A stretch of 64,000 bases of DNA from an uncultured Gammaproteobacteria bacterium (GTDB lineage Bacteria; Patescibacteriota; Microgenomatia; UBA8517): assembly GCA_964540475.1 (NCBI GenBank), contig CAZIMC010000002.1, positions 111,551 through 175,550 of the forward strand. Reading direction: 5' to 3'. Positions within the stretch are counted from its first letter, which is position 1. Every line of letters starts with the position of its first letter. A program made the translations under genes and the position numbers. Of the stretch, positions 4,981-59,811 are shown piece after piece. The notes under the pieces were generated by a model. The model was not told where the DNA came from and ran no database searches. It was given only the letters and a program-made list of their open reading frames with translations.

Positions 4981-5187
4981 ATGCTTGTCCTCGCTAGTTT
5001 AGTGGTTTAACCCGTTGTTAGTGCTTCCATATACTTTTACACGCTAGGGATTTCAAGGGTTTTTAAGGGTAATACAGGGTGTAACAGGGTATATCTAGGT
5101 TCTACACAAACTTCAATTTTCTATATTCTAGACTTTCTAGTTGGTTTTTACCCAAAGCAAGGATTAACCAGAGTAAATAGAGCGTAA

Positions 5188-7823: not shown

Positions 7824-8066
7824 ATGAAAAGAGTGATGGAACCGAAATTATTATTCCGATATTTGGATAATGAAGATAGCGAAACTCGCCTTAAAACCGC
7901 ATATTGGAGGATATTTCGACAGGCACGAAAGAACTTAATTCGAAGAAAGAAAATGTTGGGGATAGATTATCTCCATACATATGAACTAATACCCGTGAAG
8001 AAAATAAAAATAAGAATAATTAACCCTGTTTTATACGACAGGGACAAAATAAGAATTTATGGATAA
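7824..8066 (+). CDS. small basic protein, possible recombination directionality factor
   Basis: 80 aa, Arg/Lys-rich. Lies immediately upstream of, and overlaps by 8 bp, the serine recombinase gene. Confidence 0.35.
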   Translation: MKRVMEPKLLFRYLDNEDSETRLKTAYWRIFRQARKNLIRRKKMLGIDYLHTYELIPVKKIKIRIINPVLYDRDKIRIYG

Positions 8067-9669
8067 TCATCTATCAAATGTATCGGGTTACTATGCCCGT
8101 GTTTCAACAGGCAGGCAGGAAAACGAAGAAACAATAGAGTCCCAGAAAGCAGAAATTAAGGAAAGAATAAAAAAGGATAATAATTATATTTCCCCTGAAC
8201 ATGAATTCTTTGATGACGGATGGACTGGAACAATACTAGCCAGACCTGGACTCGATGCCTTAAGAGATACAGTAAAGCGAAAAGAGATTAAGTATTTATA
8301 TGTTTACGATTTAGGTCGATTGAGCCGAGATTTTACTTATCAGTTATTGCTTCTAAAAGAGTTTGAGGACGAAGGGGTAAAGGTAATATCGCTACACGAT
8401 ATTAACCCTGAGAATGGTGAGCAAAACTTTATGCGTAATATCATGGGTGCCTTCCACGATTATGAACGTATCAAAATTGCGGAACGGTTCAGGCGAGGTA
8501 AATTGCATAAGGCAAAGAATGGCCTTCTAATCAATGGTCAAGGACTATACGGTTATACCTACATAAAAAAGACAGATAATAAACCACCCAAAATTGTGCT
8601 AAATGCAAAAGAAGCAGAGGTGGTGAAACTAATTTTCAATTGGTTAGGTAATGAAGGATATTCCATTAAGGAAATTGTCAGAAAGCTTTACGAGAAGGGA
8701 ATACAGCCGAGAAAGAACAAAAGCGAGTTTTGGAGTACAGGACCAATTCTAAGGCTTCTTCGGTGTGACTCTTATATTACAGGGGTGATTTACTATAACA
8801 AATCAGAAGCGATTGAAACTAAAGTACCTCGAAAAGAAGAAAAGTACAGGAAGATAAAAAAGGGGAGCAGACGGGTAAGGCCAAGGGCAGAATGGTATCC
8901 CTACAAAGTACCGAAAATCCTAGATGATTGGGATTTATTCAACCGAGTCCAAAAGATATTGGACAACAATCGAAGGCATGGACCGAGAAGAAAATCTTAT
9001 GACTATTTGTTATCAGGTCTAATATTTTGTGAGTGTGGTCAAAGGCGGGCAGGAAATGGGAAGAATAACGGGCATTACTATTATCGGTGTACTGACAGAA
9101 TTCTCAGGCATCCCTTACCTCCTGAATGTAAATCACCGGCCTTAAATGCCAGAGTACTCGATAAAGTGTTTTGTGATGAGCTTACGAAATACCTCACAAA
9201 TTCCAAGAACATCAACGAGATTGCAGAAGACTACCTCAAAGCTCAAGCGGTTGATGAAAGCGAGGAAAGAGAAAAGCAAGCACACCTTCATAACATTTCA
9301 AAGCTTGAGGAAGAAGAAAGACGCTGTATCAGGCTTCATGTTGAGGGAGAAATTGAGTTCGAGGAATTTAAGGAACTAAAAAGTGATATAAACAAACGAA
9401 GAAAGGATGAAGAAAACGAGCTAAAACGACTAAATGAGCTAACAAAGGATATAAATATCGATAACGTTGAGCTACAAGAATTCTGCCAAGAGGTGAAAGA
9501 AGTGTTACAGAGCCTCAATTACTCAAGTAAGTCTTTGTTAATTAGAGACGTAATTGATAAAATAGTCATGAAAGGAACAACAAATGAGGTTGAAGTTATG
9601 GGGCATATACCCATAAATCACCTAAATATCGGGTATGAACTTATCAGTAGGAATAGTGGGCCTACCTAA
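8059..9669 (+). CDS. large serine recombinase (integrase)
   Basis: N-terminal resolvase catalytic domain (YARVSTGRQENEE with the catalytic Ser region). Central recombinase domain. Zn-ribbon (CECG...C..C). C-terminal coiled coil. 536 aa. Confidence 0.9.
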   Translation: MDNHLSNVSGYYARVSTGRQENEETIESQKAEIKERIKKDNNYISPEHEFFDDGWTGTILARPGLDALRDTVKRKEIKYLYVYDLGRLSRDFTYQLLLLKEFEDEGVKVISLHDINPENGEQNFMRNIMGAFHDYERIKIAERFRRGKLHKAKNGLLINGQGLYGYTYIKKTDNKPPKIVLNAKEAEVVKLIFNWLGNEGYSIKEIVRKLYEKGIQPRKNKSEFWSTGPILRLLRCDSYITGVIYYNKSEAIETKVPRKEEKYRKIKKGSRRVRPRAEWYPYKVPKILDDWDLFNRVQKILDNNRRHGPRRKSYDYLLSGLIFCECGQRRAGNGKNNGHYYYRCTDRILRHPLPPECKSPALNARVLDKVFCDELTKYLTNSKNINEIAEDYLKAQAVDESEEREKQAHLHNISKLEEEERRCIRLHVEGEIEFEEFKELKSDINKRRKDEENELKRLNELTKDINIDNVELQEFCQEVKEVLQSLNYSSKSLLIRDVIDKIVMKGTTNEVEVMGHIPINHLNIGYELISRNSGPT

Positions 9670-10738
9670 CGTTGGAAAGTCCACACTTTTTAATGCGCTT
9701 TTGAAAAAGCAGCAAGCATATGTTGCTAATTTTCCTTTTGCAACGATCGAACCGAATATTGGAGTCGTGCCAGTACCAGACAATCGTCTATCGCAATTGT
9801 CGCAAGCGGTCAAAGGTTCAGAAGGGCTTGACGTTTTGCCGCCCGGGGTTCCTGCGACTGTTGAGTTCGTAGACATTGCAGGGTTAATCGCAGGAGCACA
9901 TAAAGGCGAAGGTTTGGGGAATAAATTTCTAAGCCATATTAGGGAAGTTGATGCGATTTGTCATGTCTTACGGGTTTTTAGTGATAAGGATATTGTGCGT
10001 GACGGGCAAATAACACCCGACTTGGATTTTGAAACTATTGAAACTGAGTTGGCGCTTGCTGATCTGCAGACATTAGAAAACCAGAAAGACCCGGGAGGCT
10101 CGCAGGACAAAGAATTACGAAAAAGATGGGAATTAGTACTAAAATTAAAGGAATCGATCTCAAAAGGTAAGCCGGCAAGAAGTATTGTTTTATCGGATGA
10201 AGAGACAAAAATCCTAAAAGAACTCTCATTACTTACAGCAAAACCAATTTTGATTGTACTTAATGTCGATGAGGACGATTTAAAACGAAGAGGCGAGATC
10301 GAAGAACATTTTGCAATGCGGCTTAAAGTCAATAAAGAGCAGGTTGTTACAATTTGTGCAAAGACCGAAAGCCAATTAGCTGATCTTACTGACGAGGAGC
10401 AGGCAGTTTATTTAAGTGAATTAGGGGTATCTGACTCAGGATTATCACGACTGATTCAAAAAGCATTTACAACACTTGGACTTATTACTTTTCTGACAGC
10501 TGGTGAAAAGGAAGTTCGGGCCTGGACCATTAAAGCGGGAATTACGGCACAAGAGGCCTCGGGGGTTATCCACACGGATTTTATGAAAAAGTTTATAAAG
10601 GCAGACGTTTGCAATTTCAACGATTTTATATCTGCCCCGGGATGGAAGATTGCCCGAGAGAAAGGGCTGGTCCGTTCAGAAGGCCGGGACTATATTGTAA
10701 AAGAGGCGGATGTAATTGAGTTTAAAATTGGAAGCTGA
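9635..10738 (+). CDS. ychF: ribosome-binding ATPase YchF (Obg family GTPase)
   Basis: G1 motif GIVGLPNVGKSTLFNAL. C-terminal TGS domain. 367 aa. Confidence 0.9.
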   Translation: MNLSVGIVGLPNVGKSTLFNALLKKQQAYVANFPFATIEPNIGVVPVPDNRLSQLSQAVKGSEGLDVLPPGVPATVEFVDIAGLIAGAHKGEGLGNKFLSHIREVDAICHVLRVFSDKDIVRDGQITPDLDFETIETELALADLQTLENQKDPGGSQDKELRKRWELVLKLKESISKGKPARSIVLSDEETKILKELSLLTAKPILIVLNVDEDDLKRRGEIEEHFAMRLKVNKEQVVTICAKTESQLADLTDEEQAVYLSELGVSDSGLSRLIQKAFTTLGLITFLTAGEKEVRAWTIKAGITAQEASGVIHTDFMKKFIKADVCNFNDFISAPGWKIAREKGLVRSEGRDYIVKEADVIEFKIGS

Positions 10739-14642: not shown

Positions 14643-15628
14643 GACCGAATGGCTTGTTGGGCAATTGCTAAAATTTGGCGTCTTTCCAGGTCAACCGCGG
14701 ATATTTTCATCAAAGTTTTATAATGACGGGCAATTTGCTCATCTTCCCGGAAAGTGTTTGCTGGGAAGTAAATTGCGTTGATAATATTGACCAATGCAAA
14801 ATTGATATCTTGAGAATCTGGACTTTGCAGCAGATTAACTAGGGGAAACTCCTTGCACCATAAATATGCAGGTAGCTCAATTCTCATTTCGCCTCGAGCA
14901 GTGTGAAGAATGCCTTTAAGCATTTTTTCATTTTCTTCCAAATCACCGGGCTGTATTGCCTCATTTTCTACTGTTCTTAATATTTCAGGTTTATCAATAA
15001 AGTTACTGACTCCGTAATCTTTGTAGTCGTATCCCATGGCCTGTTGCCAAACGTGTATGTCTTCGTGCCAAACGGTTGTTTGATATTCTTTCCGCCTTTG
15101 GACAACCGGCATTCTCCCGAGTTCAGTAGCGAAAAGACCAATAAAACCCCGCGGTCGGGTTTTACGAGTATGTTTCTTGCCAAATGAGTACTCTAATATT
15201 TTATCGAATTCAGTGCCGTCGGCTACCAGTCCTACCGAGAACAAACTCCACTCAAACTCAACTTTTCTTGGGTCTAAATCTAACTCACCTTCGCTGGTAA
15301 ATTTGATGGCACTCAACAGGTTTTTCTTAACCTCGATAGGATTTCTCCCCATTTTTGCTTGGCAAATTGCCCTTCTGTTCATTAAATTCCAGGTTTTCAT
15401 AAGTCCATTGACCAGAAGAAATGACCGTTGCCATTCGGTTAATTCACCCAACTCGGGAGTTGATGAGACCAAGCGTTCGGCCAATTCGTTTAAGGATGGA
15501 ATAAAGGGATAATTGTGAATATGCTTAAATGCAAGATCTTTCCCTGAAAGAAACATTTTTGCAGCAATATGGAACGTTTTTAGAGTTTGAGCTGGTGTTG
15601 GCACTTGCTCTGGAGCTCGCTCAATCAT
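14570..15628 (-). CDS. hypothetical protein with HExxHxxQQ (Zn-metallopeptidase-like) motif
   Basis: 352 aa. Contains WHEDIHVWQQ. Otherwise unrecognised. Its 3' end overlaps the next ORF by 73 nt in another frame. Confidence 0.5.
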   Translation of the reverse strand: MIERAPEQVPTPAQTLKTFHIAAKMFLSGKDLAFKHIHNYPFIPSLNELAERLVSSTPELGELTEWQRSFLLVNGLMKTWNLMNRRAICQAKMGRNPIEVKKNLLSAIKFTSEGELDLDPRKVEFEWSLFSVGLVADGTEFDKILEYSFGKKHTRKTRPRGFIGLFATELGRMPVVQRRKEYQTTVWHEDIHVWQQAMGYDYKDYGVSNFIDKPEILRTVENEAIQPGDLEENEKMLKGILHTARGEMRIELPAYLWCKEFPLVNLLQSPDSQDINFALVNIINAIYFPANTFREDEQIARHYKTLMKISAVDLERRQILAIAQQAIRSWGTQVTHTHKLQPFLLYYHQISV

Positions 15629-34464: not shown

Positions 34465-35421
34465 ATGGCTGCCCAAACCGAATCTATCAACGGCGAAATT
34501 GGAAAAAGGATTGGAGAATTCCTTGAATACCTTCAGGTTGAGCGCGGCGCTTCTCCCCTGACCTTGCGTAATTACAGACATTATTTAACGCGTTTTGTAA
34601 ATTGGTTGCAAAAAGAAGGCATCCGCAGTAGTCTCGAAGATATAAACCAGGAAATAATAAGATCCTTCAGGGTATACCTATCAAATCTCCCAGATGGTAA
34701 GGGAGGAAAACTAGGAAGAAGAACACAAAGTTATCACGCAATTGCCCTTAGAAGTTTTCTTAAATGGTTAATTAAGAACGACTACAAGGTTATGGCTCCA
34801 GATAAAATTGATCTGCCGAAAATTAACGAAAGGCAAGTGAAATTTTTAAACGGTGAGCAAGTAGATAGACTTCTAAATGCCCCCACTCTTTCGACCATCC
34901 AGGGAAAGCGGGATAAGGCAATCTTAGAAGTTTTCTTCTCAACGGGATTGCGGGTTAGTGAGTTAACCAGGCTGGATCGTGACAAAGTCGATCTGGGAAG
35001 GCGCGAATTCGGGATTATTGGTAAAGGCGGACATGCGCGAGTAGTTTTTCTTTCGGCGCGTGCCTCCGATTGGCTAAAAGTTTATTTAGATGCAAGAAAA
35101 GATAAATATAAGCCAATTTTTATTAGACATAAGGGTAAAATCGGCCCAACCACCCCAGATGAAAAAATGCGTCTCACCCCCCGTTCTGTTCAGCGTATGA
35201 TAAAAAATTATGTCAGGAAAGTTAAGCTTCCTGTTGAGGCAACCCCGCATGTTTTGCGGCATTCATTTGCAACAGATTTACTTATGGCTGGGGCTGATAT
35301 AAGAAGTGTGCAGGAGATGCTCGGGCACAAAAACATATCAACTACTCAAATTTACACACATGTAACCAACAAACAACTTAAAGACGTTCATTCGGCTTTC
35401 CACGGCAAGGGCGGAAGTTGA
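34465..35421 (+). CDS. xerC: tyrosine site-specific recombinase XerC/XerD family
   Basis: N-terminal SAM-like domain (LEYLQVERGASPLTLRNYRHYLTRFVNWL). Catalytic RHxxR...Y box: HVLRHSFATDLLMAGADIRSVQEMLGHKNISTTQIYTHV. Confidence 0.85.
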   Translation: MAAQTESINGEIGKRIGEFLEYLQVERGASPLTLRNYRHYLTRFVNWLQKEGIRSSLEDINQEIIRSFRVYLSNLPDGKGGKLGRRTQSYHAIALRSFLKWLIKNDYKVMAPDKIDLPKINERQVKFLNGEQVDRLLNAPTLSTIQGKRDKAILEVFFSTGLRVSELTRLDRDKVDLGRREFGIIGKGGHARVVFLSARASDWLKVYLDARKDKYKPIFIRHKGKIGPTTPDEKMRLTPRSVQRMIKNYVRKVKLPVEATPHVLRHSFATDLLMAGADIRSVQEMLGHKNISTTQIYTHVTNKQLKDVHSAFHGKGGS

Positions 35422-43251: not shown

Positions 43252-45228
<1,977 letters not shown>

Positions 45229-45900: not shown

Positions 45901-47658
45901 TTGAGTCATAATGTTTACGATATGCCATTTCCTGTCCCTAATGCCACACCTATTGAAAACGATGTGGTCACGTTAGCGGATATATTAGTTCAACTCGGCG
46001 CTTTAGACGAGGCTCGTGCAAAGCAGGTAAAACTTGCTGAAATACAAACCGGAACCTCACAAGAAGACATTATAAAGCAGCAAAAGCTGGTTGATGAGGT
46101 AAGTTTGGTAAAGGCTAAGGCCAAGCTATATAACGTCCCGTTTATTGACCTAGGGTTGGTGCCAGCCTCACCCGAGGCGCTATCTATCCTTCCTCAGGAA
46201 ATTGCTGAGCGTTTTAAAGTTTTTCCCGTTTCTTCTGATCAACAAAGCAAAACCCTTGTTTTGGCAATGAGCGATCCATTGGATTTAACCGCTATTGAAT
46301 TTATTGAACAGCGAACAGGCTTAAGAGTCAAAGCCGAGGCAGCTGAACCTAGCAAAATTACTGAATATATTTCAACGAGATATGCAGGTTCATTGTCACA
46401 AGAAGTCACTGAGGCATTAAAAGAAGTGGACCCGGGAAGAGACAATGGCAGAAATTTGGATGTAAGCAGAACTGGGGTTATAAGAGAGGAAAAAATTGCA
46501 GAAATTGTTTCGCATGTTCTGGATTTTGCAGTTCGGGCAAGGGCTAGCGATATCCATATTGAACCACAAGAGCAGTCTACACGAGTTCGGTACAGAATAG
46601 ATGGTATTCTTCAAGAGAAACTGGCCATACCAAAACAGCTTCATGATTCGCTTTCATCACGGATCAAAATCTTAAGCGGTATGAAGATAGATGAAAAACG
46701 AGTGCCGCAGGACGGCAGATTTAACTTTAAAACGTCAGATGAAGAGGTTGACCTTCGTGTCAGTTCCCTTCCCACGTCCTGGGGAGAAAAAATTGTTATG
46801 CGTTTGCTTAAAAAAACTGGGGGCGTCCCTACACTTAATGAGTTGGGGTTAAGGGGTGGCGCTCTTAAAAATTTAGAGAATGCAATTTTAAGACCACATG
46901 GAATAATTTTGATCTGTGGTCCAACCGGTTCTGGAAAAACCACAACTCTATACTCAATAATTTCAAAAATTAATACGCCTCGGGTAAACATTGTAACCCT
47001 GGAGGATCCAATAGAGTATAAAATTCCGGGGGTAAATCAGGTTCAGGTTAACCCTGCGGTGGGGCTCACTTTTGCCTCAGGGCTACGTTCATTTTTACGG
47101 CAAGATCCTAATGTAATACTGGTTGGTGAAATTCGTGATAAAGAAACCGCTGAGCTTGCAATCCAGGCTTCTCTCACGGGCCATTTGGTCTTTTCGACTC
47201 TTCATACAAATGACGCTGCAGGGGCGCTTCCCAGACTTTTAGATATGGGTGCTGAGCCGTACCTCCTGGCTTCCTCAATGACAGCTATTGTTGCCCAGCG
47301 TGTGGTGCGCAAAATTCACGACAAATGTAAAACCACAGACGTAGCCAAGCCTGAGGTAATTCAGGAGATTAAAAGCGGGTTGGGCAATATTTGGCCGGCT
47401 GACAGGCAAATTAATCTATATAAAGGTTCGGGCGATGAAGAGTGTGGAAATAGCGGATATTTGGGTAGAATTGGAATTTTTGAGGTAATCCCCGTAAGTG
47501 AGAAAATTGGAAGGTTAATACTTGAGCGCTCTCCTGCCGTAACCATAGAAAAACAGGCGCGTGAAGAGGGGATGGTTACTCTTAAACAGGACGGATACTT
47601 AAAGGTTACAGAAGGTTTGACTACAATGGAAGAAATTCTAAGAGTGGCTCAGGAATAA
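45901..47658 (+). CDS. pilB: type IV pilus assembly ATPase PilB (GspE family)
   Basis: GSPII_E_N N-domain. Walker A ICGPTGSGKTTTLYS. Zn tetracysteine. 585 aa. Confidence 0.9.
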   Translation: MSHNVYDMPFPVPNATPIENDVVTLADILVQLGALDEARAKQVKLAEIQTGTSQEDIIKQQKLVDEVSLVKAKAKLYNVPFIDLGLVPASPEALSILPQEIAERFKVFPVSSDQQSKTLVLAMSDPLDLTAIEFIEQRTGLRVKAEAAEPSKITEYISTRYAGSLSQEVTEALKEVDPGRDNGRNLDVSRTGVIREEKIAEIVSHVLDFAVRARASDIHIEPQEQSTRVRYRIDGILQEKLAIPKQLHDSLSSRIKILSGMKIDEKRVPQDGRFNFKTSDEEVDLRVSSLPTSWGEKIVMRLLKKTGGVPTLNELGLRGGALKNLENAILRPHGIILICGPTGSGKTTTLYSIISKINTPRVNIVTLEDPIEYKIPGVNQVQVNPAVGLTFASGLRSFLRQDPNVILVGEIRDKETAELAIQASLTGHLVFSTLHTNDAAGALPRLLDMGAEPYLLASSMTAIVAQRVVRKIHDKCKTTDVAKPEVIQEIKSGLGNIWPADRQINLYKGSGDEECGNSGYLGRIGIFEVIPVSEKIGRLILERSPAVTIEKQAREEGMVTLKQDGYLKVTEGLTTMEEILRVAQE

Positions 47659-47660
47659 AT

Positions 47661-48719
47661 ATGAATTTAAGAGAACTACTTCAATTGGTTGTTGAGAGGA
47701 ACGCGTCGGATCTTCATCTGGTTAGCGGGTTTCCGCCAGCTTTAAGGGTAGATGGGGCGTTGTTCCCCGTTCCCGGGGAGGCTGTATTGACACCTGATAC
47801 TGTGGCTCAACTTCTAAAGGATGCACTAAAAGCCGACATTTTAGAGAGGCTTGTTAAAAATAAGGAAGTTGATTTCTCACTTGCCTACTCCGAAAAAGCC
47901 AGGTTTCGTGTTAATGCATACACCCAAAAGGGATCGTGGGCGGCGGCTTTTAGAAGAATCCCGATAGATATTCCTTTTATAGACTCACTTGGACTACCCA
48001 AGGTTTTGCATAATTTTGTTAATTTAAGGCAAGGTTTAATACTGGTTACAGGTCCAACGGGACACGGGAAGTCAACCACGCTTGCCTCAATCTTACAGGA
48101 AATAAACACCTCACGTGCTTGCCATATAGTGACCATTGAAGACCCGGTTGAATTCGTGTTTAAACCTGTAAAATCAATCATTTCCCAAAGAGAAATGTAT
48201 TATGATTCACTTTCCTGGCCGGTAGCACTAAGATCGGTGTTGCGGGAGGATCCGGACGTTGTCCTAATCGGTGAAATGCGTGATCATGAAACAATTGCTT
48301 CGGCTCTAACAATTGCCGAAACCGGGCACCTGGTTTTTGCAACCCTCCACACAAATTCTGCGGCGCAATCAGTTGATCGTATTGTTGATGTTTTTCCGGA
48401 CGAACAACAGGACCAGATCCGTCTGCAGCTTTCAAACGTTATCGAAGCTGTTTTCTCTCAGAGGTTAATTGAGGCTGCCAGCGGTGGACGGGTTGTAGGA
48501 TATGAATTAATGCTTGGAACAACTGCTATCAGGACCACGATACGCGACGGAAAAACTCACCAGATCGATAACATCATTCAAACCTCTCAGGAAGCCGGTA
48601 TGAACTCGCTTGAGCAGTCGCTTGCAGAACTAGTTAAAAAGGGAAAAATAACTCTTGATATTGCACAAAGCTACTCCTTAAGGCCAGATGAGCTGGCAAG
48701 ACTGGTAAGAACTGTTTAA
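47661..48719 (+). CDS. pilT: twitching motility (retraction) ATPase PilT
   Basis: Walker A LVTGPTGHGKSTTLAS. AIRN..R motif region. 352 aa. Confidence 0.9.
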   Translation: MNLRELLQLVVERNASDLHLVSGFPPALRVDGALFPVPGEAVLTPDTVAQLLKDALKADILERLVKNKEVDFSLAYSEKARFRVNAYTQKGSWAAAFRRIPIDIPFIDSLGLPKVLHNFVNLRQGLILVTGPTGHGKSTTLASILQEINTSRACHIVTIEDPVEFVFKPVKSIISQREMYYDSLSWPVALRSVLREDPDVVLIGEMRDHETIASALTIAETGHLVFATLHTNSAAQSVDRIVDVFPDEQQDQIRLQLSNVIEAVFSQRLIEAASGGRVVGYELMLGTTAIRTTIRDGKTHQIDNIIQTSQEAGMNSLEQSLAELVKKGKITLDIAQSYSLRPDELARLVRTV

Positions 48720-48722
48720 CCG

Positions 48723-49928
48723 ATGAAAAGATTTATCTACAAGGCAAAAGATGCCCAAAACCGTCTTATAACTGGTGAGGTAGAAAGTACAAATATACAA
48801 ACTGCTGCCAAACTTGTTAGACAAAGAGGCTTGATTGTTATCTCACTTAAGCCCATCGGATTTAACCTGATAACTTTTGTAAGAAGTTTTAGGGACAGGA
48901 TTACTCAAGCTCAAGTATCAAATGTCACAAGACAGCTCGCAACAATGGTAAATGCAGGACTGCCGGTTACTGAATCATTGTCGATTCTGCGGAGCCAGAC
49001 CAAAGGGCTTCTTCAGAAAGTCCTGGGTCAAATTTTGGCAGATGTAGAAAGCGGTGAACCGTTAAGTAAGGCTTTGAGTAAGCACGACAAAGTGTTTACT
49101 CCAACATATATTGCATTGGTCAAATCGGGTGAATTAGGGGGAGTTCTTGACGAGGTGCTGCTGCGGCTTGCTGATAATTTGGAAAAACAGGAGGAGTTTA
49201 AAGGTAAGGTAAAAGGTGCACTTATTTACCCGACCATTATCGTCATCGGTATGATTGTTGTGGGATTTGTTATGATGATTTTTGTTGTCCCCCGCTTAAC
49301 TTCCCTTTACGTTGACTTTGATGCGGAACTTCCCGTACCAACACAGATATTAATGGGCCTATCCTCCTTTATTGCCCGCTTTTGGGTGTTACTCCTGGTT
49401 TTGGGGGGCTTAGGTTTATACACATTAAACCTGTACCGCAGAACCCAGGAAGGTAAAAGAAAAACCGACGAGCTAGTTTATAAAATTCCCATAATCGGTG
49501 AACTTAGTAAAAAGATTACTTTAACAGAAGTTACCAGAACACTTTCCTTAATGGTTGGATCAGGCGTTTCGATTTTGGAGGGGCTTAATATAACCTCTTC
49601 CATTGTCGGTAATAGTGTTATTTCAGATGCCTTAAGAGACTCCTCAAAACAAGTAGAAAAAGGGTTTCCTGTGTCTTTTGCTTTTGCAAGGCATTCGGAG
49701 GCTTTCCCATATATTTTGTCCCAGATGATTGCAGTTGGAGAGGAAACTGGAAAGATGGATGAAGTTTTGGGAAAGGTAAGCCATATATTTGAAATTGAAG
49801 CAGACCAAAAAGTAAAGGCATTAACTGCAGCGGTTGAGCCACTTATAATGGTTGTTTTGGGGCTTGGGGTGGGGTTTTTGGTGATTGCGGTAATTCTTCC
49901 AATTTACAACCTGACAACTCAATTTTAG
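48723..49928 (+). CDS. pilC: type IV pilus platform protein PilC (GspF family)
   Basis: 401 aa. Two T2SF repeats. 3 TM segments. Confidence 0.85.
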   Translation: MKRFIYKAKDAQNRLITGEVESTNIQTAAKLVRQRGLIVISLKPIGFNLITFVRSFRDRITQAQVSNVTRQLATMVNAGLPVTESLSILRSQTKGLLQKVLGQILADVESGEPLSKALSKHDKVFTPTYIALVKSGELGGVLDEVLLRLADNLEKQEEFKGKVKGALIYPTIIVIGMIVVGFVMMIFVVPRLTSLYVDFDAELPVPTQILMGLSSFIARFWVLLLVLGGLGLYTLNLYRRTQEGKRKTDELVYKIPIIGELSKKITLTEVTRTLSLMVGSGVSILEGLNITSSIVGNSVISDALRDSSKQVEKGFPVSFAFARHSEAFPYILSQMIAVGEETGKMDEVLGKVSHIFEIEADQKVKALTAAVEPLIMVVLGLGVGFLVIAVILPIYNLTTQF

Positions 49929-50783: not shown

Positions 50784-51560
50784 ATGGAATATTTCTTATT
50801 CGCAGTATTAGGTCTCGTAGTTGGCTCATTTATAGCTGCTCTAACCTACCGTTTGCCTAGAAATATTTCAATTGCAAAAGGCCGGTCAAGATGCAATTTC
50901 TGTAAAAGCCAAATTGCGTGGTATGACAATGTCCCCCTTATTTCCTTTTTCATTCTTGGAGGAAGATGCAGAAGTTGTAAAAAAAGTATCTCACTACGCT
51001 ACCCAATCATCGAAGCTTTGACTGCAGCGACTTTTTTGCTAACACCAGTTTTTTACCCTCACTTAACAAAAAACTTAAACTTTCTTTTCAGTACTTTTGC
51101 ACCACTTTCATTGGCTTTATTGTTAGTTGTCTTTTCAGTCCTAATCGCAATATTTGTTATAGATTTGGAGCATCAAATAATTCCCGACCTGCTTACCTTC
51201 ACTCTCCTGGGTATACTGGTATTTTATCTTTTACTTATTTCATATCCGGATCTTTTCCTTAGCTTTTTCGCTGGTTTATTGTCTGCTTTGCTGCTTCTGG
51301 CAATTCACATGCTTACTAAGGGGCGTGGTATGGGGTTAGGGGACGTAAAGTTTGCAATTTTTGGTGGAATGTTTCTTGGGTATCCCCTATTTTTGGTCTG
51401 GCTGATGGGAAGTTTTGTCTTGGGAGCAATTGTTGGAGTTATATTGATACTAATTGGAAGAGCAAGTTTTGGTAAACAAATTGCTTTCGGGCCTTTCCTT
51501 GCCCTTTCCTTGATTTTGACCGCCCTTTTTGGGAATATGGTACTTAAGCTTTTCGTATAG
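50784..51560 (+). CDS. pilD: prepilin peptidase (A24 family) PilD
   Basis: N-terminal Zn-binding CNFC...CRSC. Polytopic. Catalytic Asp regions (IPDLL; GLGDVKF). Confidence 0.85.
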   Translation: MEYFLFAVLGLVVGSFIAALTYRLPRNISIAKGRSRCNFCKSQIAWYDNVPLISFFILGGRCRSCKKSISLRYPIIEALTAATFLLTPVFYPHLTKNLNFLFSTFAPLSLALLLVVFSVLIAIFVIDLEHQIIPDLLTFTLLGILVFYLLLISYPDLFLSFFAGLLSALLLLAIHMLTKGRGMGLGDVKFAIFGGMFLGYPLFLVWLMGSFVLGAIVGVILILIGRASFGKQIAFGPFLALSLILTALFGNMVLKLFV

Positions 51561-52135: not shown

Positions 52136-52615
52136 ATGCCCACCTCGAAAAAAAACGCTCTAGGCTTTACTTTAATTGAGATATTGATTGTAATAATGCT
52201 TATTGGCATTTTGTCGGTTATTGGTGTTTATGGCTTCACGTCATCCCAGCAACGTGTTAGAGATGCTACGAGGAAAGCGGATCTGAAAAATCTCCAGACT
52301 GCATTACGGTTGTATTATAATGACCGTGGTCGATATCCTGCCAGCAGCGGGGGGCAAATTAACGCTTGCGGATCATCCTGTAACAGTCCATGCAACTGGG
52401 GTTCGGAGTGGCTTTGCGGTTCCACTTCATATATGAGTACCCTTCCCAAAGATCCGGTAAGCCAATCAGCCGACGGATATGTTTACGTATATACAGTTAA
52501 TGCTTCAGACTCCGATCTTTATACACTTTCTACTTGTCTTGAAAATAAAAACGATTCGCACGGTATAGTCGATACGGGTTGTAATTCCGGACTCAAATTC
52601 GAAGTAAAACCATAA
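52136..52615 (+). CDS. pilin-like protein (GspG/pseudopilin type), Cys-rich
   Basis: LGFTLIEILIVIMLIG signal. RDATRKADLKNLQTALRLYYNDRGRYP. Confidence 0.75.
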   Translation: MPTSKKNALGFTLIEILIVIMLIGILSVIGVYGFTSSQQRVRDATRKADLKNLQTALRLYYNDRGRYPASSGGQINACGSSCNSPCNWGSEWLCGSTSYMSTLPKDPVSQSADGYVYVYTVNASDSDLYTLSTCLENKNDSHGIVDTGCNSGLKFEVKP

Positions 52616-53121
52616 TGAAAAAAGTTACTAAATTTAACCGCATAAAGTCCATTGGTTTCTCCTTAATTGAGCTGCTGGTTGTAATCTCAATAATAGGTGC
52701 TTTAGCCGCACTTTCTGTTGTTTCTTACTCAGCAGTTCAAAAGCAGGCTCGTGATACACAACGTAAAAACGATCTTAAGCACTATCAGAGCTTATTAATA
52801 CAGTTTGCAAGTGAAAACCGTGGATTTTACCCGTCATCTTCCGGTGGTGTTGTTAATCTTGATGTTATGTGTTCAAGTGTTTTACTTAATACATACACTT
52901 CTTCTTGCCCCACCGACCCGGGAAGTGGCGCGCGTGCGTATTCGTATATGCCCAACGTTTCAGGCGTAGCAGGTTATCCTCCAACCTCAACAAGATACAC
53001 TCTTTATATTCATGGCGGATTGGAGGCAGAAACTGATAAAACGTTCGTGATTTGCTCAAATGGATTTAGCGGAATTGTTAATAATACCTGGTCGGTGGTT
53101 AGCACAATATGCAGTCCATAA
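52615..53121 (+). CDS. pilin-like protein; C-terminal 98 aa identical to the 53598 gene
   Basis: IGFSLIELLVVISIIG signal. The 3' 294 nt lie inside the 301-bp direct repeat. Confidence 0.75.
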   Translation: MKKVTKFNRIKSIGFSLIELLVVISIIGALAALSVVSYSAVQKQARDTQRKNDLKHYQSLLIQFASENRGFYPSSSGGVVNLDVMCSSVLLNTYTSSCPTDPGSGARAYSYMPNVSGVAGYPPTSTRYTLYIHGGLEAETDKTFVICSNGFSGIVNNTWSVVSTICSP

Positions 53122-53128
53122 TGATAAA
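52828..53128 (+). repeat. 301-bp perfect direct repeat, copy 1 (3' two-thirds of a pilin gene plus start of the next)
   Basis: Base-for-base identical to 53796-54096 when compared by eye. Offset 968 bp. Confidence 0.9.
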
Positions 53129-53588
53129 TGATTCAGGTTTTACACTAATTGAGCTACTTGTTGCAATTTCAATCATTGCTGTTCTCATCGCGCTTTCTGC
53201 CTTTGGTTTTCAGGGCGTATTTGAAAATTCAAGAGATACCCAGAGGAAAAGTGACCTCAAGCAGTATCAAGCCGCTCTTGAAAACTATGCAAACAAAAAC
53301 AACGGGCGTTATCCCCTTTTGGACAATGGAGGTAGTATCACCGCCTTTTGTACAGAACTGGGTTTGGGTACGAATACATTGGGAACGGCAACAGCATGTC
53401 CGGAAGATCCCCTCTTTGGTCAAGAATGGTACTACTATAATTACAACTCGGATGCTGCCGGCACTTATTACACACTGTCTACCAAGCTGGAGGGAACCAG
53501 TACCAGCACTTTTTTTGTTGTTTGCTCAAACGGCAAATCCGGTAGTCATCCAATTGCAAGTTTTAATACCCAACACTGCCCGTTTTAG
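53109..53588 (+). CDS. pilin-like protein
   Basis: SGFTLIELLVAISIIAVLIA signal. Its first 20 nt (MQSIMI) lie within repeat copy 1. Confidence 0.75.
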   Translation: MQSIMINDSGFTLIELLVAISIIAVLIALSAFGFQGVFENSRDTQRKSDLKQYQAALENYANKNNGRYPLLDNGGSITAFCTELGLGTNTLGTATACPEDPLFGQEWYYYNYNSDAAGTYYTLSTKLEGTSTSTFFVVCSNGKSGSHPIASFNTQHCPF

Positions 53589-53597
53589 TCACTCAAT

Positions 53598-54089
53598 ATG
53601 CATTTAAGTAAAAGCACTCGGGGATTTACACTAATTGAGATCCTGGTGGCAGTTAGTATAATTGGCATCTTGATTCTTCTGGGGGGAATCAGGTTTGGCG
53701 ATCTGTTTCAAAACTCCCGTGATGCACAGAGGAGAAGCGATATGAAGCAATACCAGACGGCTCTTGAAAATTTTGCAAATGAAAATGCAAACATGTACCC
53801 GTCATCTTCCGGTGGTGTTGTTAATCTTGATGTTATGTGTTCAAGTGTTTTACTTAATACATACACTTCTTCTTGCCCCACCGACCCGGGAAGTGGCGCG
53901 CGTGCGTATTCGTATATGCCCAACGTTTCAGGCGTAGCAGGTTATCCTCCAACCTCAACAAGATACACTCTTTATATTCATGGCGGATTGGAGGCAGAAA
54001 CTGATAAAACGTTCGTGATTTGCTCAAATGGATTTAGCGGAATTGTTAATAATACCTGGTCGGTGGTTAGCACAATATGCAGTCCATAA
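53598..54089 (+). CDS. pilin-like protein; C-terminal 98 aa identical to the 52615 gene
   Basis: RGFTLIEILVAVSIIG signal. The 3' part lies within repeat copy 2. Confidence 0.75.
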   Translation: MHLSKSTRGFTLIEILVAVSIIGILILLGGIRFGDLFQNSRDAQRRSDMKQYQTALENFANENANMYPSSSGGVVNLDVMCSSVLLNTYTSSCPTDPGSGARAYSYMPNVSGVAGYPPTSTRYTLYIHGGLEAETDKTFVICSNGFSGIVNNTWSVVSTICSP

Positions 54090-54096
54090 TGATAAA
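53796..54096 (+). repeat. 301-bp perfect direct repeat, copy 2
   Basis: Identical to 52828-53128. Confidence 0.9.
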
Positions 54097-54580
54097 GAGG
54101 GGTTTTACCTTAATTGAACTAATGATAGTTGTGTCAGTAATTGGCCTTGTCCTTTCTCTAACGGTTTTTGGGTTCCAGAGATCAAGAGCTTCTTCCCGCG
54201 ATGCTAAAAGAAAAGCAGACCTAGAGACTCTAAAGTCAGCTCTTGTTATTTATAAGGCAGATAATGGAGTTTACCCATCAACTGGTGGCGCCTGGTGGGG
54301 TGTAAGCGTTAACGGGGGCAGTAGGACAACAAGTGGCGCAAATGCGTATATCCCGGGTTTAACCCCGAATTATATCGGTGAACTTCCCACGGACCCGTTA
54401 GGTAATACCTCAGGATGGTCGGGATACCTATACAGATCAAACGGACAGCAATTTAAGATACTATCACACTCAACAGGACCAGAAAGTTTTCCCGCCGTTG
54501 GACAACCATATTACGACCCGATTCGTTCCACATGGGCTATTATGGTTTGTAGTGCTGAACCAGCGTGCAGTAACTGGTAA
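54077..54580 (+). CDS. pilin-like protein
   Basis: RGFTLIELMIVVSVIG signal. Starts MQSIMI, derived from repeat copy 2. Confidence 0.75.
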   Translation: MQSIMIKRGFTLIELMIVVSVIGLVLSLTVFGFQRSRASSRDAKRKADLETLKSALVIYKADNGVYPSTGGAWWGVSVNGGSRTTSGANAYIPGLTPNYIGELPTDPLGNTSGWSGYLYRSNGQQFKILSHSTGPESFPAVGQPYYDPIRSTWAIMVCSAEPACSNW

Positions 54581-54591
54581 TATTATCTTAT

Positions 54592-55098
54592 ATGAAAGAG
54601 CATACACAGCAAATTAATAGGTATCAGGGATTTACACTTATTGAACTACTTATTGTGGTTTCGATAATTGGGGTTGTGGTAACTTTGGCAGTATTTGGCT
54701 TGCAAGGGTCAAGAGTCTCAGCCCGCAATGCCAAACGATTGGCTGATTTGGAAACAATTAGGGCAGCTCTTGAAATTTATAAATCTGAAAACAATGCGTA
54801 TCCACCAATGGGCGCCTCACCTACTTGCAGTGGATGGAATATTAGCACCAATTCCAATTGGCTATATAATCTGACAACATTAACCAATAAGCCAGTTGAT
54901 CCGATAAATACCACTGTCAGCGGTTGCGATAACGGATTTTTTTACCGGTATGCCGCCTGTGGAACTGGGTACAAACTTCAGGTAAGGTTGGAGGGCGTAA
55001 GTACCGGCAGTACCTGCCCATCGTGTGGTGGTCACACAGGTGGTACGCAGGGCATTGCAGGGACCGGTGATTTTTGGCACTGTGTCACGAACCCGTAG
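54592..55098 (+). CDS. pilin-like protein
   Basis: QGFTLIELLIVVSIIG signal. ARNAKRLADLETIRAALEIY. Confidence 0.75.
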   Translation: MKEHTQQINRYQGFTLIELLIVVSIIGVVVTLAVFGLQGSRVSARNAKRLADLETIRAALEIYKSENNAYPPMGASPTCSGWNISTNSNWLYNLTTLTNKPVDPINTTVSGCDNGFFYRYAACGTGYKLQVRLEGVSTGSTCPSCGGHTGGTQGIAGTGDFWHCVTNP

Positions 55099-55116
55099 AT
55101 TTGCTATAGTTAGTAT

Positions 55117-55653
55117 ATGCCTTCCCGTGGATTCACACTTATAGAGCTTCTCGTCAGTATCGGAATTCTCATAAGCGTTTTCTCATTGGGCTTTGCCGGG
55201 TACAGGGATTATTCCAGACGGCAGGAAATGGCCTCCATATCGCGACAATTAAGAGCTGATCTTCGTTGGGCACAGTCGCTCGCACTTTCAGGGCATAAAC
55301 CTACTGCTGACTACTTAGGTGCTGCAACCAGTGTTTGTCAATCAGCTAATCCCTTAATTGGCTACAACCTTCAAAGCTCGGCAAATTCATACCGAATCAG
55401 GGCAGTCTGTAACCAAGCTGGGACTGCGCAATTTGTTATCATTAAAAATACAGCAGTCCCATCTTACTTTACGTTGACTGGAGGGTACAACGGAGGTTCA
55501 CCAGTAAACCCTAGCGGTTATTTTGTCTTTAAACCCTTGGGTCAAGGTACTAATCTTTCTCCGCAAGCTGCAGAGCGCTTTACCACCATAACGGATACAC
55601 GTTCTGGTGCGCAGGAAACAATCTTAATTACGTCATCCGGGGAGGTCAAATGA
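55117..55653 (+). CDS. minor pilin (GspH/FimT-like)
   Basis: RGFTLIELLVSIGIL signal. 178 aa. Confidence 0.65.
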   Translation: MPSRGFTLIELLVSIGILISVFSLGFAGYRDYSRRQEMASISRQLRADLRWAQSLALSGHKPTADYLGAATSVCQSANPLIGYNLQSSANSYRIRAVCNQAGTAQFVIIKNTAVPSYFTLTGGYNGGSPVNPSGYFVFKPLGQGTNLSPQAAERFTTITDTRSGAQETILITSSGEVK

Positions 55654-56126
55654 AAAAAGCGTTGAAAAGTGGTCAATCGCTTTTTGAAGTACTTGTTGCA
55701 GTTGGAGTAATGGCCCTACTTGTAGTTGGTCTTATAAATATGACAACTGTTTCAATAAAGAATTCTACTTACTCCAGGAATAAAACAGCATCAACACTTC
55801 GTTCACAAGAGTTGGCAGAATGGCTACGCGGGCAAAGAGACTCAACCGGTTGGGTAACATTCAGAAACAGGGTTAACTCCGCCAACCAGACTTTTTGTTT
55901 TGACAGTTTGGGTTGGACTAAAAACCGAGCATGTAACGCCACAGAATATATTGCAGGAACAATTTTTGTGAGACAAGCTGCCTTTACATGCTACACCGGA
56001 AATACTCTGGTTGCCTGCAACACAGCAGGGGTTGTTGATAGGATTAGAGCGGCAATAACAACAACCTGGACATCCGGTTCAACACACCAGTCTACCGTTA
56101 CAACTGAACTAACCGCATGGAGATGA
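55650..56126 (+). CDS. minor pilin (GspI-like)
   Basis: SGQSLFEVLVAVGVMALL class III signal with Glu+5. Confidence 0.6.
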   Translation: MKKALKSGQSLFEVLVAVGVMALLVVGLINMTTVSIKNSTYSRNKTASTLRSQELAEWLRGQRDSTGWVTFRNRVNSANQTFCFDSLGWTKNRACNATEYIAGTIFVRQAAFTCYTGNTLVACNTAGVVDRIRAAITTTWTSGSTHQSTVTTELTAWR

Positions 56127-56614
56127 AAAAATTAATTATTGGTTACACATTAATTGAGATTCTGGTTGTGCTTGGTATATTTGCTTTGCTTGCCACACTC
56201 TCTACCCAAGCCGTATTCCTTACCATCAGGAGCTCAAGAAAAAGCGAAGCTGCCATAAAAGTGCGTGAGAATTTAAATTACAGCATAATGGTAATGGAAA
56301 GAGAGATTAGAAATGCAAAAACGGTTATTGGGTGTACTGCTGATAGCAGGAGAGTTAACTATACAAACCTTAGCAATGTGACCTCATACTTCGCTTGTGA
56401 AACATCAAGCGGAAACACAACAGTTGCCTCTGGCTCATCGAGTATGCGCCTTACTGGTACTGAGGTCAACCTGACCTCCTGCTCATTTACCTGCAGTAAC
56501 GATGGTTCAGGTAACTTGCAATCAGTATCAATTAATCTAGTTGGCAGCCATACTACAATTGGCGGAACAGAAGGTGTTTCAATCCCCATGACCACTCAAG
56601 TTTTTATTAGATAA
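56117..56614 (+). CDS. minor pilin (GspJ/PilW-like)
   Basis: IGYTLIEILVVLGIFALL signal. Confidence 0.6.
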   Translation: MEMKKLIIGYTLIEILVVLGIFALLATLSTQAVFLTIRSSRKSEAAIKVRENLNYSIMVMEREIRNAKTVIGCTADSRRVNYTNLSNVTSYFACETSSGNTTVASGSSSMRLTGTEVNLTSCSFTCSNDGSGNLQSVSINLVGSHTTIGGTEGVSIPMTTQVFIR

Positions 56615-56661
56615 TTAAACCTGATTGACCTTACTACAAGCTATTGTTAAACTGATTACGT

Positions 56662-57594
56662 ATGACAAATCTGCCGAGAAAGGTCTGTGAATCTGGCCAA
56701 GCGGTGCTTCTGGTACTTCTTGCAATGAGTGTTGTTTTAACAGTTGGCTTGTCTGTTGTTTCACGCACAATTACTGATGTTACAGTTACAACGACCGACG
56801 AGGAGTCAACCCGCGCGTTTGCTGCTGCCGAAGCAGGAATTGAAAGGGCGCTGATTACCGGAAGCAATACCGGCTCGATTTCGCTTGGCAGTTCTGCCTT
56901 TAATGCGACTGTTCTTTCGGCTGGTGTTTCTTCCAATAGTTTCAATCACCCCCAACCAATCAGGTCAGGCGAATCAATACCGCTTTGGCTGGTTGGGCAT
57001 AACTCTAACGGCGATGTTGTTTGTAATGCCACTTATCCATGTTTTACTGGTAACATATTGCGTGTTTGTTGGGGTCAGCCTGGCACTTCCAGAACAAGTA
57101 TTACAGTTCCTGCAATTGAAGCGTCAATATTTTATGATCCTACACCCTCCTCCCCCCCGTCATATGCGGATGTGCGAGTTGCCAAAGCAGCAGTGGACCC
57201 TTATAACGGGACTAACACCAGTAGGTCAGGTAACGCGTTTGATAAAAGCATAAATGTAAATTGTACAATCAGCGGAAAGTCATATGCGTTTTATAAGGAC
57301 TTAAGCCTTACATCAATGGGGATACCTGCTATCTCTCAAAATTCCAACTACGGGTTATTTTTGGCAAAATTCAGACTCTTGTATAACGATACACAACATG
57401 AAGTAGGCATTACAACCGCCGGTGTTACTGGATTCTCCGGCACCAACTTCCCTACTCAAGGGGTGGATGTTGAATCAACAGGAACAGCAGGAAGTGCAAA
57501 CCGTAAAATCAAAGTATTTCAGAGTTTTTCTGAGCCGCCACCGATTTTTGATGCAGTAATTTACACCGAAAATTCAGGAGGAATAACAAAATGA
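56662..57594 (+). CDS. PilX/GspK-like pilus tip/minor pilin protein
   Basis: ESGQAVLLVLLAMSVVLTVGLSVV...AFAAAEAGIERAL resembles the PilX N-domain and has no Glu+5. 310 aa. Ser/Thr/Asn-rich. Confidence 0.55.
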   Translation: MTNLPRKVCESGQAVLLVLLAMSVVLTVGLSVVSRTITDVTVTTTDEESTRAFAAAEAGIERALITGSNTGSISLGSSAFNATVLSAGVSSNSFNHPQPIRSGESIPLWLVGHNSNGDVVCNATYPCFTGNILRVCWGQPGTSRTSITVPAIEASIFYDPTPSSPPSYADVRVAKAAVDPYNGTNTSRSGNAFDKSINVNCTISGKSYAFYKDLSLTSMGIPAISQNSNYGLFLAKFRLLYNDTQHEVGITTAGVTGFSGTNFPTQGVDVESTGTAGSANRKIKVFQSFSEPPPIFDAVIYTENSGGITK

Positions 57595-58604
57595 GCGTAG
57601 GACTGGATATAGGGTCTAAAACTATCAAGATAGTTGAGCTCTCTAAAGAAGGGAAAAGTGCCCAACTAGTTGCCTCTGGTGTAGTGGGATACAGCGGTAA
57701 CTCCCCGGATAAGATGGTTGAGGATCGCGAGTTTGCGGCTTTAGCAGAAATTGTCAAAAAGCTTCATAAAGAGGCTCGTATCAGTCAAAAAGAGGTAAAC
57801 ATTGCTCTTCCTGAACAGCTTGTATTCACAAGAGTCATAAAATTTCCCCTGCTAACAGACCAGGAGGTTAACGCTGCTGTCAAATGGGAGGCCGAGCAGT
57901 ATATCCCCATTCCTCTCTCGGAAGCGATTGTTCAGCATCAAATTTTAGAAAGAAGAGAAAATGCGTCTCCTCCCGAAGTCCTGGTCCTACTGGTTGCTGC
58001 CCCAAGGCTGGTTGTTGAGAAGTATCTTAAAGTGGTGGAGCTTGCAGGTTTAACTGCAATATCGATTGAGACCGAATTAACGGCACTTGTCCGGTGTCTT
58101 GCTCCAACGAATCTTACTTCGCTTGTTATCGACTTTGGTGCAACTTCAACCGATATAGCTATTGCAAAAAATGGCAGCCTCGTATTTTCCCGTTCAATAA
58201 CAACCGCTGGCGAGGCTTTTACAAGAGCTGTTGCACAAGCACTAGGGGTTGAGATAAATACTGCGGAAGAGTACAAGAGGACTTATGGTTTAACTACCCA
58301 GCTTGAAGGTAAAGTAAAAGGAGCGATTGACCCGGTATTTAGAGTTGTTGTTGATGAGGTTAAAAAAGCTATTCATTTTTATCAAACAGAGGAGAAAGGA
58401 GATGTGCCGGCCGCCATTATCCTTTCTGGTGGGACATCCGGAATGCCGGAAGCTATGAGCTTACTTTCCAAACATTTGGGTATCGAAGTGGTTGTTGGGA
58501 ATCCTTTCGAAAAGATAGCAATGGATGCGGATGTTTCCAGAACCATAGCTGCTTATGCTCCACTCTACCCGATTGCAATTGGTCTGGCTTTGGCAGGTGA
58601 ATAA
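57591..58604 (+). CDS. pilM: type IV pilus assembly protein PilM (actin-like ATPase fold)
   Basis: MSVGLDIGSKTIKIVEL... 337 aa. 4-bp overlap with the upstream gene. Confidence 0.85.
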   Translation: MSVGLDIGSKTIKIVELSKEGKSAQLVASGVVGYSGNSPDKMVEDREFAALAEIVKKLHKEARISQKEVNIALPEQLVFTRVIKFPLLTDQEVNAAVKWEAEQYIPIPLSEAIVQHQILERRENASPPEVLVLLVAAPRLVVEKYLKVVELAGLTAISIETELTALVRCLAPTNLTSLVIDFGATSTDIAIAKNGSLVFSRSITTAGEAFTRAVAQALGVEINTAEEYKRTYGLTTQLEGKVKGAIDPVFRVVVDEVKKAIHFYQTEEKGDVPAAIILSGGTSGMPEAMSLLSKHLGIEVVVGNPFEKIAMDADVSRTIAAYAPLYPIAIGLALAGE

Positions 58605-58610
58605 AACAAA

Positions 58611-59135
58611 ATGGCTAACATTAATTTAATTCCCACAGACCTTGCCCCCAAGGGTTCGGTTGTTAAACTTACAACAAACCTTAAAAGTGTAATTACGGTG
58701 GGGTTTATCATACTTATAATTTTTACTGTGGCTATTTCTTCACTGATTATTATTAACATATTTCAACTACAAGCAATTAGCCGGAGGGTCGAGGCTTTAA
58801 AAAGCTCAGTTACAACTTTGGAAGAAACTGAGCAGCGGTATGTTCTTCTTAAAGACCGCCTAAGGTGGGTAAAAGAAATTTATGCCCAGGAGCTGGCAGA
58901 CAAACAACTAACCAAATTTGAAAGCATAAATTCACTACTACCGGCTAATATTCGTGTTACTGAAATGCAGGCAACTAATGAGAGGCTAAGCTTAACTATT
59001 AGCTCAGCCTCTTCGTCTTCCCTTGTTGTCTTCATGTCTCAGATTACGGAAAACAGCGAATACGAAAACATTAGTCTTTCTAACTTTAGCTATTCGTCAG
59101 GGGTTGGTTACACAATGACGCTGGTTTTTCAATAG
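58611..59135 (+). CDS. pilN: type IV pilus assembly protein PilN
   Basis: MANINLIP. Single TM. Coiled coil. 174 aa. Position after pilM. Confidence 0.7.
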   Translation: MANINLIPTDLAPKGSVVKLTTNLKSVITVGFIILIIFTVAISSLIIINIFQLQAISRRVEALKSSVTTLEETEQRYVLLKDRLRWVKEIYAQELADKQLTKFESINSLLPANIRVTEMQATNERLSLTISSASSSSLVVFMSQITENSEYENISLSNFSYSSGVGYTMTLVFQ

Positions 59136-59136
59136 T

Positions 59137-59811
59137 ATGAAAAAAGACACCCTCCCGCCTGATATAAAGATGCTTCTTCCTACTGTGGGCCTTCTGTTGG
59201 GGCTCGTGCTAGCATTTATAATTGTAGGAAGAGTCGGCTTGTCGCAAATATCATCGCAGAGTCAGAAAATAAATGCTGCAAAAAGGGACGAAAACGCACT
59301 GACTCAAAAGGAGACCATACTAAAGGATGTAGAGGCAAACATCTTACCAACTGCTGATACATCGCTCTTGGCTGTACCTGACGTCAACCCTGCGCTCATG
59401 GCTATTGCGCAAGTTAAGGAATTAGCCTTTATGCAAGGTTTATTTGTGACTAACTTAAGAGCAGGTTCACCTAATGGTGAAAGTGGACTCGGTAATGTAC
59501 GGGTTTCATTGGATACCGAGGGCCCCCCCGATCAAATATTGGGATTTGTAAAAAGCATTAAGACCGTTGCACCAATAATAGGTGTTGAGAGACTGACCCT
59601 AACTGGCGAAGGCAACTTAACGGTTGCTAATATTTCTTTAGTTTCGTATTGGGCCCCGCTACCTGTGAAGATATCATCTTTAACAGAGCCGTTGTCGGGC
59701 TTAACTTCTGAGGAACAAACACTTTTAGATCTTCTTGGAAGTCTCACTGGGCCCTCCTTCTTTGAAACCCAGCCTGAAGAACCTGCTGGACGGCAAGACC
59801 CTTTTAATTAA
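59137..59811 (+). CDS. pilO: type IV pilus assembly protein PilO
   Basis: N-terminal TM. Coiled coil. 224 aa. Position after pilN. Confidence 0.6.
   Translation: MKKDTLPPDIKMLLPTVGLLLGLVLAFIIVGRVGLSQISSQSQKINAAKRDENALTQKETILKDVEANILPTADTSLLAVPDVNPALMAIAQVKELAFMQGLFVTNLRAGSPNGESGLGNVRVSLDTEGPPDQILGFVKSIKTVAPIIGVERLTLTGEGNLTVANISLVSYWAPLPVKISSLTEPLSGLTSEEQTLLDLLGSLTGPSFFETQPEEPAGRQDPFN

Follow-up and report, generated by a model that had tools for sequence, protein, structure and literature searches.

A recently shared head domain in two neighbouring type IV pilin genes, probably the product of ectopic gene conversion

Results

A type IV pilus gene cluster with an array of pilin genes

The stretch of DNA that we analysed (the window) is 64 kb long and, as judged by Pfam matches, contains a type IV pilus cluster whose genes are tightly packed and co-directional, all of them on the plus strand. 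The genes for PilB (45901-47658), PilT (47661-48719), PilC (48723-49928) and the prepilin peptidase PilD (50784-51560) encode proteins that score above their Pfam cut-offs, as does PilM (57591-58604) farther downstream. A pilin that was recognized by Pfam, P0 (50100-50711), is encoded between PilC and PilD. PilD is followed directly by the pilin-like gene P1 (51566-52117, 183 aa) and then by the pilin-like gene P2 (52136-52615), both of which are upstream of the four pilin genes, A to D, that concern us most. Additional pilin-like genes, E, F, G and H, follow D within positions 54592-59811, and the product of F has a weak GspH match below the Pfam cut-off. Also in this part of the cluster are a gene with a weak match to PilX_N (56662-57594; E 9e-4, below the cut-off), PilN (58611-59135), whose match to PF05137 falls just below the cut-off (20.7 vs 22.8 bits), and a gene at the position of PilO (59137-59811), which has no Pfam match and is named by position only. 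The pilins are therefore encoded together with a prepilin peptidase, an assembly ATPase and a platform protein in the same cluster. Promoter-like and terminator-like sites in the region were not above shuffled controls, and we treat the pilin array as a presumed single operon.

P1 combines a hydrophobic N-terminus with a 'YPP' region like those of pilins, and has neither a prepilin cleavage motif nor a Pfam match. It is kept at the same position in relatives, with 107 tblastn matches at 32-37% identity. Examples are found at 4392-4964 in locus L161 and at 4564-5019 in locus L164, two related loci that are described below.

Relatives of PilC in the genome collection are 47-71% identical to it, and the majority of those that have an informative name are labelled Woesebacteria, Microgenomates or Patescibacteria. 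The best match to PilD in the metagenome collection is at most 50% identical. Based on these comparisons, the window organism appears to be a Woesebacteria-like member of the candidate phyla radiation. The window also contains a gene for a large serine recombinase (8059-9669; Resolvase, Recombinase and Zn ribbon domains), which may mark an integrated element, and a gene for a tyrosine recombinase of the phage-integrase family (34465-35421). Both recombinase genes are 18-44 kb from the pilin array.

Pilin genes A to D

The four pilin genes are A (52615-53121, 168 aa), B (53109-53588, 159 aa), C (53598-54089, 163 aa) and D (54077-54580, 167 aa). All four products have the prepilin cleavage/methylation motif (G/F-T-L-I-E, with the slash marking cleavage; PF07963) and score above the Pfam cut-off; D also matches PF08334. 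Each of the four proteins is a singleton, and all come from one NCBI contig of 217,748 bp. The fold predicted for A and C by AlphaFold (AF2 pLDDT 91.0 and 90.4) is an alpha-beta head that comes after one long alpha-1 helix (residues 17-67 in A and 12-62 in C). An open reading frame of 152 codons that starts with TTG (53149-53607), in another frame, covers nearly all of gene B and is almost certainly spurious.

A perfect 301-bp repeat contains the head and none of the stem

Positions 52828-53128 and 53796-54096 are identical at 301 of 301 nt, as determined by script comparison within one contig of one assembly. A repeat finder gave the same pair as 300 nt with a spacing of 968. The sequences differ at the first base beyond each border (T at 52827 vs G at 53795 on the left, and T at 53129 vs G at 54097 on the right), and identity falls immediately to the level seen between paralogs. 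A unique segment of 667 bp (53129-53795) separates the two copies and contains the rest of B, a 9-nt spacer and the stem of C, so that B lies inside the 968-bp unit.

The limits of the repeat coincide with the domain structure of the two pilins. Copy 1 (52828-53128) contains codons 72-168 of A and the stop codon, and copy 2 (53796-54096) contains codons 67-163 of C and the stop codon. Each extends 7 nt past the stop codon, into the start of B and D, respectively. In both genes the repeat begins at the Tyr codon of an invariant Tyr-Pro ('YP') motif, five residues past the alpha-1 helix (residue 72 of A and residue 67 of C, mature position 58 in both). Running from this codon through the stop, the repeat contains the whole head (97 codons plus the stop; 52828-53121 in A and 53796-54089 in C) and nothing of the stem (52615-52827 in A and 53598-53795 in C). 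Between the stems of A and C, identity is 43% in amino acids and 50% in DNA, and it drops to 33% at third codon positions; they are old paralogs that have diverged to saturation at synonymous sites. Thus, the same head is now encoded on two different stems.

An earlier note on this DNA had reported a repeat that was identical base for base, joined to N-terminal modules that differ. Both descriptions hold, with 100% identity over 301 nt and flanks that diverge at once, and with stems that match at only 43% in protein and 50% in DNA. The note placed the repeat over the last 98 codons of each gene; the 3' end is indeed repeated, and the count should read 97 sense codons and a stop. It also extended the repeat 20 nt into the next gene, encoding MQSIMI. 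An overlap with the next gene is present, but it is 20 nt only if translation starts at the first in-frame ATG, and otherwise 8 nt. The junction CCATAATGA that ends each copy is the same stop/start overlap that is found between P2 and A. This shared overlap suggests that B and D may start at 53121 and 54089 (MINDSG... and MIKRG...) and not at the first ATG, at 53109 and 54077. In that case MQSIMI would be untranslated. Depending on the start, the first 8-20 nt of D are in copy 2.

The repeat is unique in the window. No other exact direct repeat of at least 25 nt was found in the 64 kb; inverted 25-mers were absent from the window, and inverted repeats from the pilin region. Among the 11 pilin-like genes, the longest exact match outside the repeat is 15 nt and lies in the GFTLIE motif. 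B and D share an exact match of 20 nt, which is the tail of the repeat itself. At the stem-level DNA identity of 0.50, the probability of 301 consecutive matches by chance is ~1e-90, and the finding of 0 differences in 301 positions places the divergence of the heads below 1% (95% bound).

Each copy has, 4 nt inside its left border (52832-52849 and 53800-53817), a weak hairpin (CGTCATCTTCCGGTGGTG) with a T-rich run behind it and a CCGG site within it. Terminator-like matches in the region are at chance level, and the hairpin is probably meaningless.

Relatives of the pilins and of the head

The closest full-length homologues of A that we examined are P0006 (53% identical, from L161) and P0007 (50%, from L164). 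Both loci have the same cluster order as the window, with a single A-like gene and a D-like gene directly after it. This arrangement indicates that A, B and C are lineage-specific paralogs that arose from one ancestral gene. The same holds for D and E.

The head has no close relatives outside the window. A word-indexed protein search with the head returned only A and C themselves. An exhaustive HMMER search of 1.84 billion representatives returned 18 proteins, namely A, C and 16 others. None of the 16 exceeds 52% identity, the value of the best, and 10 of them are small pilin-like proteins. The long, multi-stretch matches that we inspected (P0107, P0108 and P0113) were spurious matches to repetitive proteins. 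Scans of genome and metagenome contig collections gave no match to the head domain. Within the repeat, then, A and C are 100% identical to each other and at most 52% identical to any other protein, orthologues included, in libraries of 5.8 billion and 1.84 billion proteins. Because no other protein exceeds 52%, the two copies of the head can only derive from one another.

Which copy is the donor?

Comparison with orthologues suggests that A donated the head. Of the copies, the stem of A matches the stems of the orthologues P0005-P0007 best (64-66% identical), and the repeated head is likewise the best match to their heads (42-49%). These are fast-evolving proteins, and this first set of homologues was retrieved with A as the query; a search with the head only gave the same nearest proteins. 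The stem of C is the most divergent, at 46-50% identity to the orthologues, and its nearest relative is the stem of B (61%), with which it shares the derived signature F(Q/E)NSRD...ALEN(F/Y)AN(E/K)N. The head of B is 33% identical to the repeated head. Since the stem of A and the repeated head are nearest to the orthologues, and the stem of C is nearest to B, the head is probably native to A and probably replaced a B-like head in C. We regard these comparisons as moderately strong support for this direction.

Among the loci surveyed, head-only identity is confined to the window

We asked how often pilins in related clusters share sequence by comparing each of 164 related pilus loci (2.04 Mb) with itself. 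The set included 80 genome loci retrieved with PilC and 84 others. In the 80 PilC-retrieved loci, which are mostly Woesebacteria-like, all repeats between pilin genes of at least 80 nt and at least 85% identity are in the region encoding the leader and alpha-1. This is the opposite of the head-only pattern in the window. The only long repeat between pilins in the other 84 loci is a whole-gene tandem duplicate in L109 (381 nt at 94.5%). A tract of identity limited to the heads of two pilins was found in none of the 164 loci.

Pairwise comparison of pilins gave a similar picture. Among 772 within-locus pairs from 160 related loci and the window, A/C is the lone outlier, with a stem identity of 0.45 and a head identity of 0.98; this survey is approximate, as its regular-expression motif filter missed open reading frames with long spurious N-terminal extensions (e.g., the L109 pair, which was found by blastn). 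The next-highest head identity is 0.56, in a pair with a stem identity of 0.69.

Four of the related loci have features of their own. L109 is from a high-GC organism that does not belong to the candidate phyla radiation, and its duplicate (8548-9051 vs 9243-9782), an ordinary duplication located upstream of PilD, stands in contrast to A/C. Neighbouring pilins in L042 share 95 nt at 95% identity (14739-14833 vs 15260-15354), a stretch that includes the stop/start overlap as well as the leader (MITKYKVLSTKYSAFTL...) and the first part of alpha-1. This indicates that recombination or strong conservation acts on stems in relatives, the reverse of what is seen in the window. In a further two loci, L012 (14855-15921) and L016 (13806-15456), the real GFTLIELL of adjacent pilins is preceded in the leader by one or two additional pseudo-cleavage motifs, GFTL(I/M)NPTSE..K, and the leaders of neighbouring genes are 88-92% identical in DNA.

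Discussion

Based on our results, we think it likely that the repeat arose by recent, non-reciprocal copying of a whole pilin head from one paralog to another (ectopic gene conversion in the broad sense), probably from A to C. The main evidence is the difference between stem and head. Identity in the tract is far above that of the flanking paralogous sequence, synonymous sites included (301/301 vs 50% in DNA and 33% at third positions). Stems so diverged and heads without a single difference imply that the common ancestor of the heads is much younger than that of the stems.

We suggest the following sequence of events. The stems of A, B and C would first have diverged to saturation at synonymous sites. 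One event would then have overwritten ~301 nt of one pilin gene, probably placing the head of A into C. The copied tract would have reached from the invariant Tyr-Pro past alpha-1 to a few bases beyond the stop/start junction. The left end of the tract adjoins TTTGCAA(G/A)TGAAAA and the YP codons, and the right end adjoins the stop/start overlap and GGNTTTAC...TAATTGA of the next gene. Homology flanking the tract is thus limited to short conserved motifs, with no more than 15 nt of exact identity. This is probably too short for efficient RecA-type exchange of the kind that uses long homology, and copying guided by microhomology is probable. Such copying could have taken place at the conserved motifs by template switching or by short-homology recombination. 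Perhaps only a junction at the domain boundary would have survived selection.

The earlier note had considered a very recent duplication or ongoing gene conversion. A recent copy of the head is what we find. The data do not favour an ongoing process, since there is one tract and A/C is alone among the 772 pairs, and the tract is best seen as the result of a single recent event.

Alternative explanations

It is unlikely, in our estimation, that the repeat is an artefact of assembly or polishing, in which there is only one copy of the head or two similar heads were merged into one consensus sequence. The sequence comes from one contig of a genome that was derived from a metagenome, and an exact repeat of 301 bp is longer than the usual k-mer sizes, so that threading through it needs read pairs or long reads. 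However, a copy of the repeat flanks the unique 667-bp segment at either end, and from this topology there should be four unique junctions. Any linear molecule that contains B and the stem of C would therefore have two copies of the repeat. In addition, the usual response of an assembler to a repeat of this kind is to end the contig there, not to create a second copy, and no other exact repeat of at least 25 nt is present in the window. The one artefact left to consider, a possible one, is the homogenisation of a few real differences, and it would leave the conclusion of a recent event unchanged.

We consider it very unlikely that the repeat reflects programmed pilin variation, either by cassette shuffling, as the earlier note proposed, or by antigenic variation of the Neisseria kind among expressed paralogs. 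The exchange of a pilin head precisely at a domain boundary is what such a system might produce, and the borders of the tract, at short conserved motifs, resemble the microhomology-flanked tracts of pilE and pilS (PMC13321361). Host binding is a role in which pili of the candidate phyla radiation are implicated (PMC12206443), and head diversity could matter there. But both copies are in full-length genes with signal peptides and neither is a truncated silent cassette; no further head-related sequence was found in the 64-kb window. G4 motifs are absent from both strands between positions 45000 and 60000. The array contains one tract and no other exact match longer than 15 nt, and head-only identity is absent from about 160 related loci. 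Furthermore, the event would lower the head diversity of the array. The proposal of cassette shuffling is therefore not borne out: silent cassettes and other mosaic tracts are lacking at the locus, as are a G4 motif and a reverse transcriptase.

Two other explanations have almost nothing to recommend them. The heads might have been held identical by purifying selection after an old duplication, and they do contain conserved cysteines and motifs that are common to homologues. Purifying selection cannot, however, hold ~97 third positions and 7 bases that are non-coding or in the next gene while the stems are saturated (33%), and this explanation is refuted by the identity at synonymous sites. 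It is equally hard to credit that the copies are the template and variable repeats of a diversity-generating retroelement. Such elements occur commonly in the candidate phyla radiation, with the C-terminal regions of surface proteins as their targets. The two copies are 100% identical, every adenine included, and both are in-frame parts of complete genes. No Pfam match to a reverse transcriptase was found in the 40 open reading frames scanned, which included all of those of at least 300 aa. Lastly, a mobile element can be dismissed, with no inverted repeats in the region, no inverted 25-mers in the window, and no transposase or reverse transcriptase in the open reading frames scanned with Pfam.

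Comparison with known systems

Ectopic gene conversion and concerted evolution of bacterial paralogs are familiar, for example in tufA/tufB and in the babA/babB chimeras of Helicobacter. Ectopic gene conversion between bacterial paralogs is the closest known kind of event to that described here. Similarities include a tract of full identity, synonymous sites included, in otherwise diverged paralogs, the presumably non-reciprocal nature of the change, and the formation of a chimeric gene. In contrast, the flanking homology of A and C is minimal (at most 15 nt exact) and the tract corresponds to exactly one structural domain. Both genes belong to one presumed operon, with a spacing of 968 bp between donor and recipient, and we see a single event with no sign of recurrent homogenisation. 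Gene conversion in antigen families is also among the subjects of a report on Mycobacterium tuberculosis (PMC13061034).

Antigenic variation in Neisseria gonorrhoeae and Neisseria meningitidis involves one expressed pilE and about 19 silent copies that lack a promoter and are truncated at the 5' end; it has a G4/sRNA initiator and yields patchwork tracts (PMC13321361, PMC2188579). As presumably happened in the window, the variable C-terminal part of the pilin is replaced non-reciprocally and the N-terminal stem is kept, and the ends of the tracts are near short conserved sequences. In contrast, A and C are both complete and, if the array is an operon, co-transcribed; there is no G4, there is only one tract, and head diversity is lost and not gained.

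Similar pilin arrays are found elsewhere in the Patescibacteria. An example is provided by the pili of the Saccharibacterium Nanosynbacter lyticus TM7x (PMC12206443), an organism that belongs to the same radiation and has the same kind of machinery with several pilin paralogs. That work was not concerned with recombination between pilin genes, and the window organism appears to be Woesebacteria-like and no Saccharibacterium.

Consequences of a shared head

A single event can place a pilin head on a stem with only 43% of residues in common, and the locus is a clean, natural case of a chimera at the level of domains in the surface-filament genes of the candidate phyla radiation. Beyond this, it is ordinary gene conversion between paralogs, with no evidence for a new system of variation. 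Since pili of this radiation are implicated in host binding (PMC12206443), a change of head could matter biologically.

One could go further and imagine that co-expressed pilin paralogs of Woesebacteria-like episymbionts regularly exchange whole heads, with domain precision and guided by microhomology, without silent cassettes of the Neisseria type, and that such exchange re-tunes which stem, and thus which position in the filament, presents the host-binding head. If so, the A/C tract would be one captured instance, and the 968-bp unit would be toggling by deletion and duplication in the population. We regard this as a long shot.

The event also leaves behind a recombination-prone repeat that could delete parts of two genes. 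Unequal exchange between direct repeats of 301 bp at a spacing of 968 bp can readily lead to deletion or amplification. RecA-type deletion between the copies would join the stem and head of A to D and remove B and the stem of C. In the predicted product A would be followed by D, the same order as that of their counterparts in the relatives L161 and L164. The earlier note had suggested that the repeats could drive deletions or inversions; deletion and duplication are indeed possible, and copies in direct orientation cannot give rise to inversions. Chimeric genes are known to arise by deletion between paralogs (PMC13626634), and in the window, too, direct repeats in paralogs would allow a fusing deletion, although here the outcome is only predicted.

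As for L161 and L164 themselves, the stretch shown differs from the window in having no called genes for PilM, PilN or PilO. Shortly past the pilus cluster, both loci have a gene for a protein of the 23S rRNA intervening-sequence family (PF05635; L161 9403-9780 and L164 11359-11724), which adjoins the cluster in L161 and is two genes beyond it in L164.
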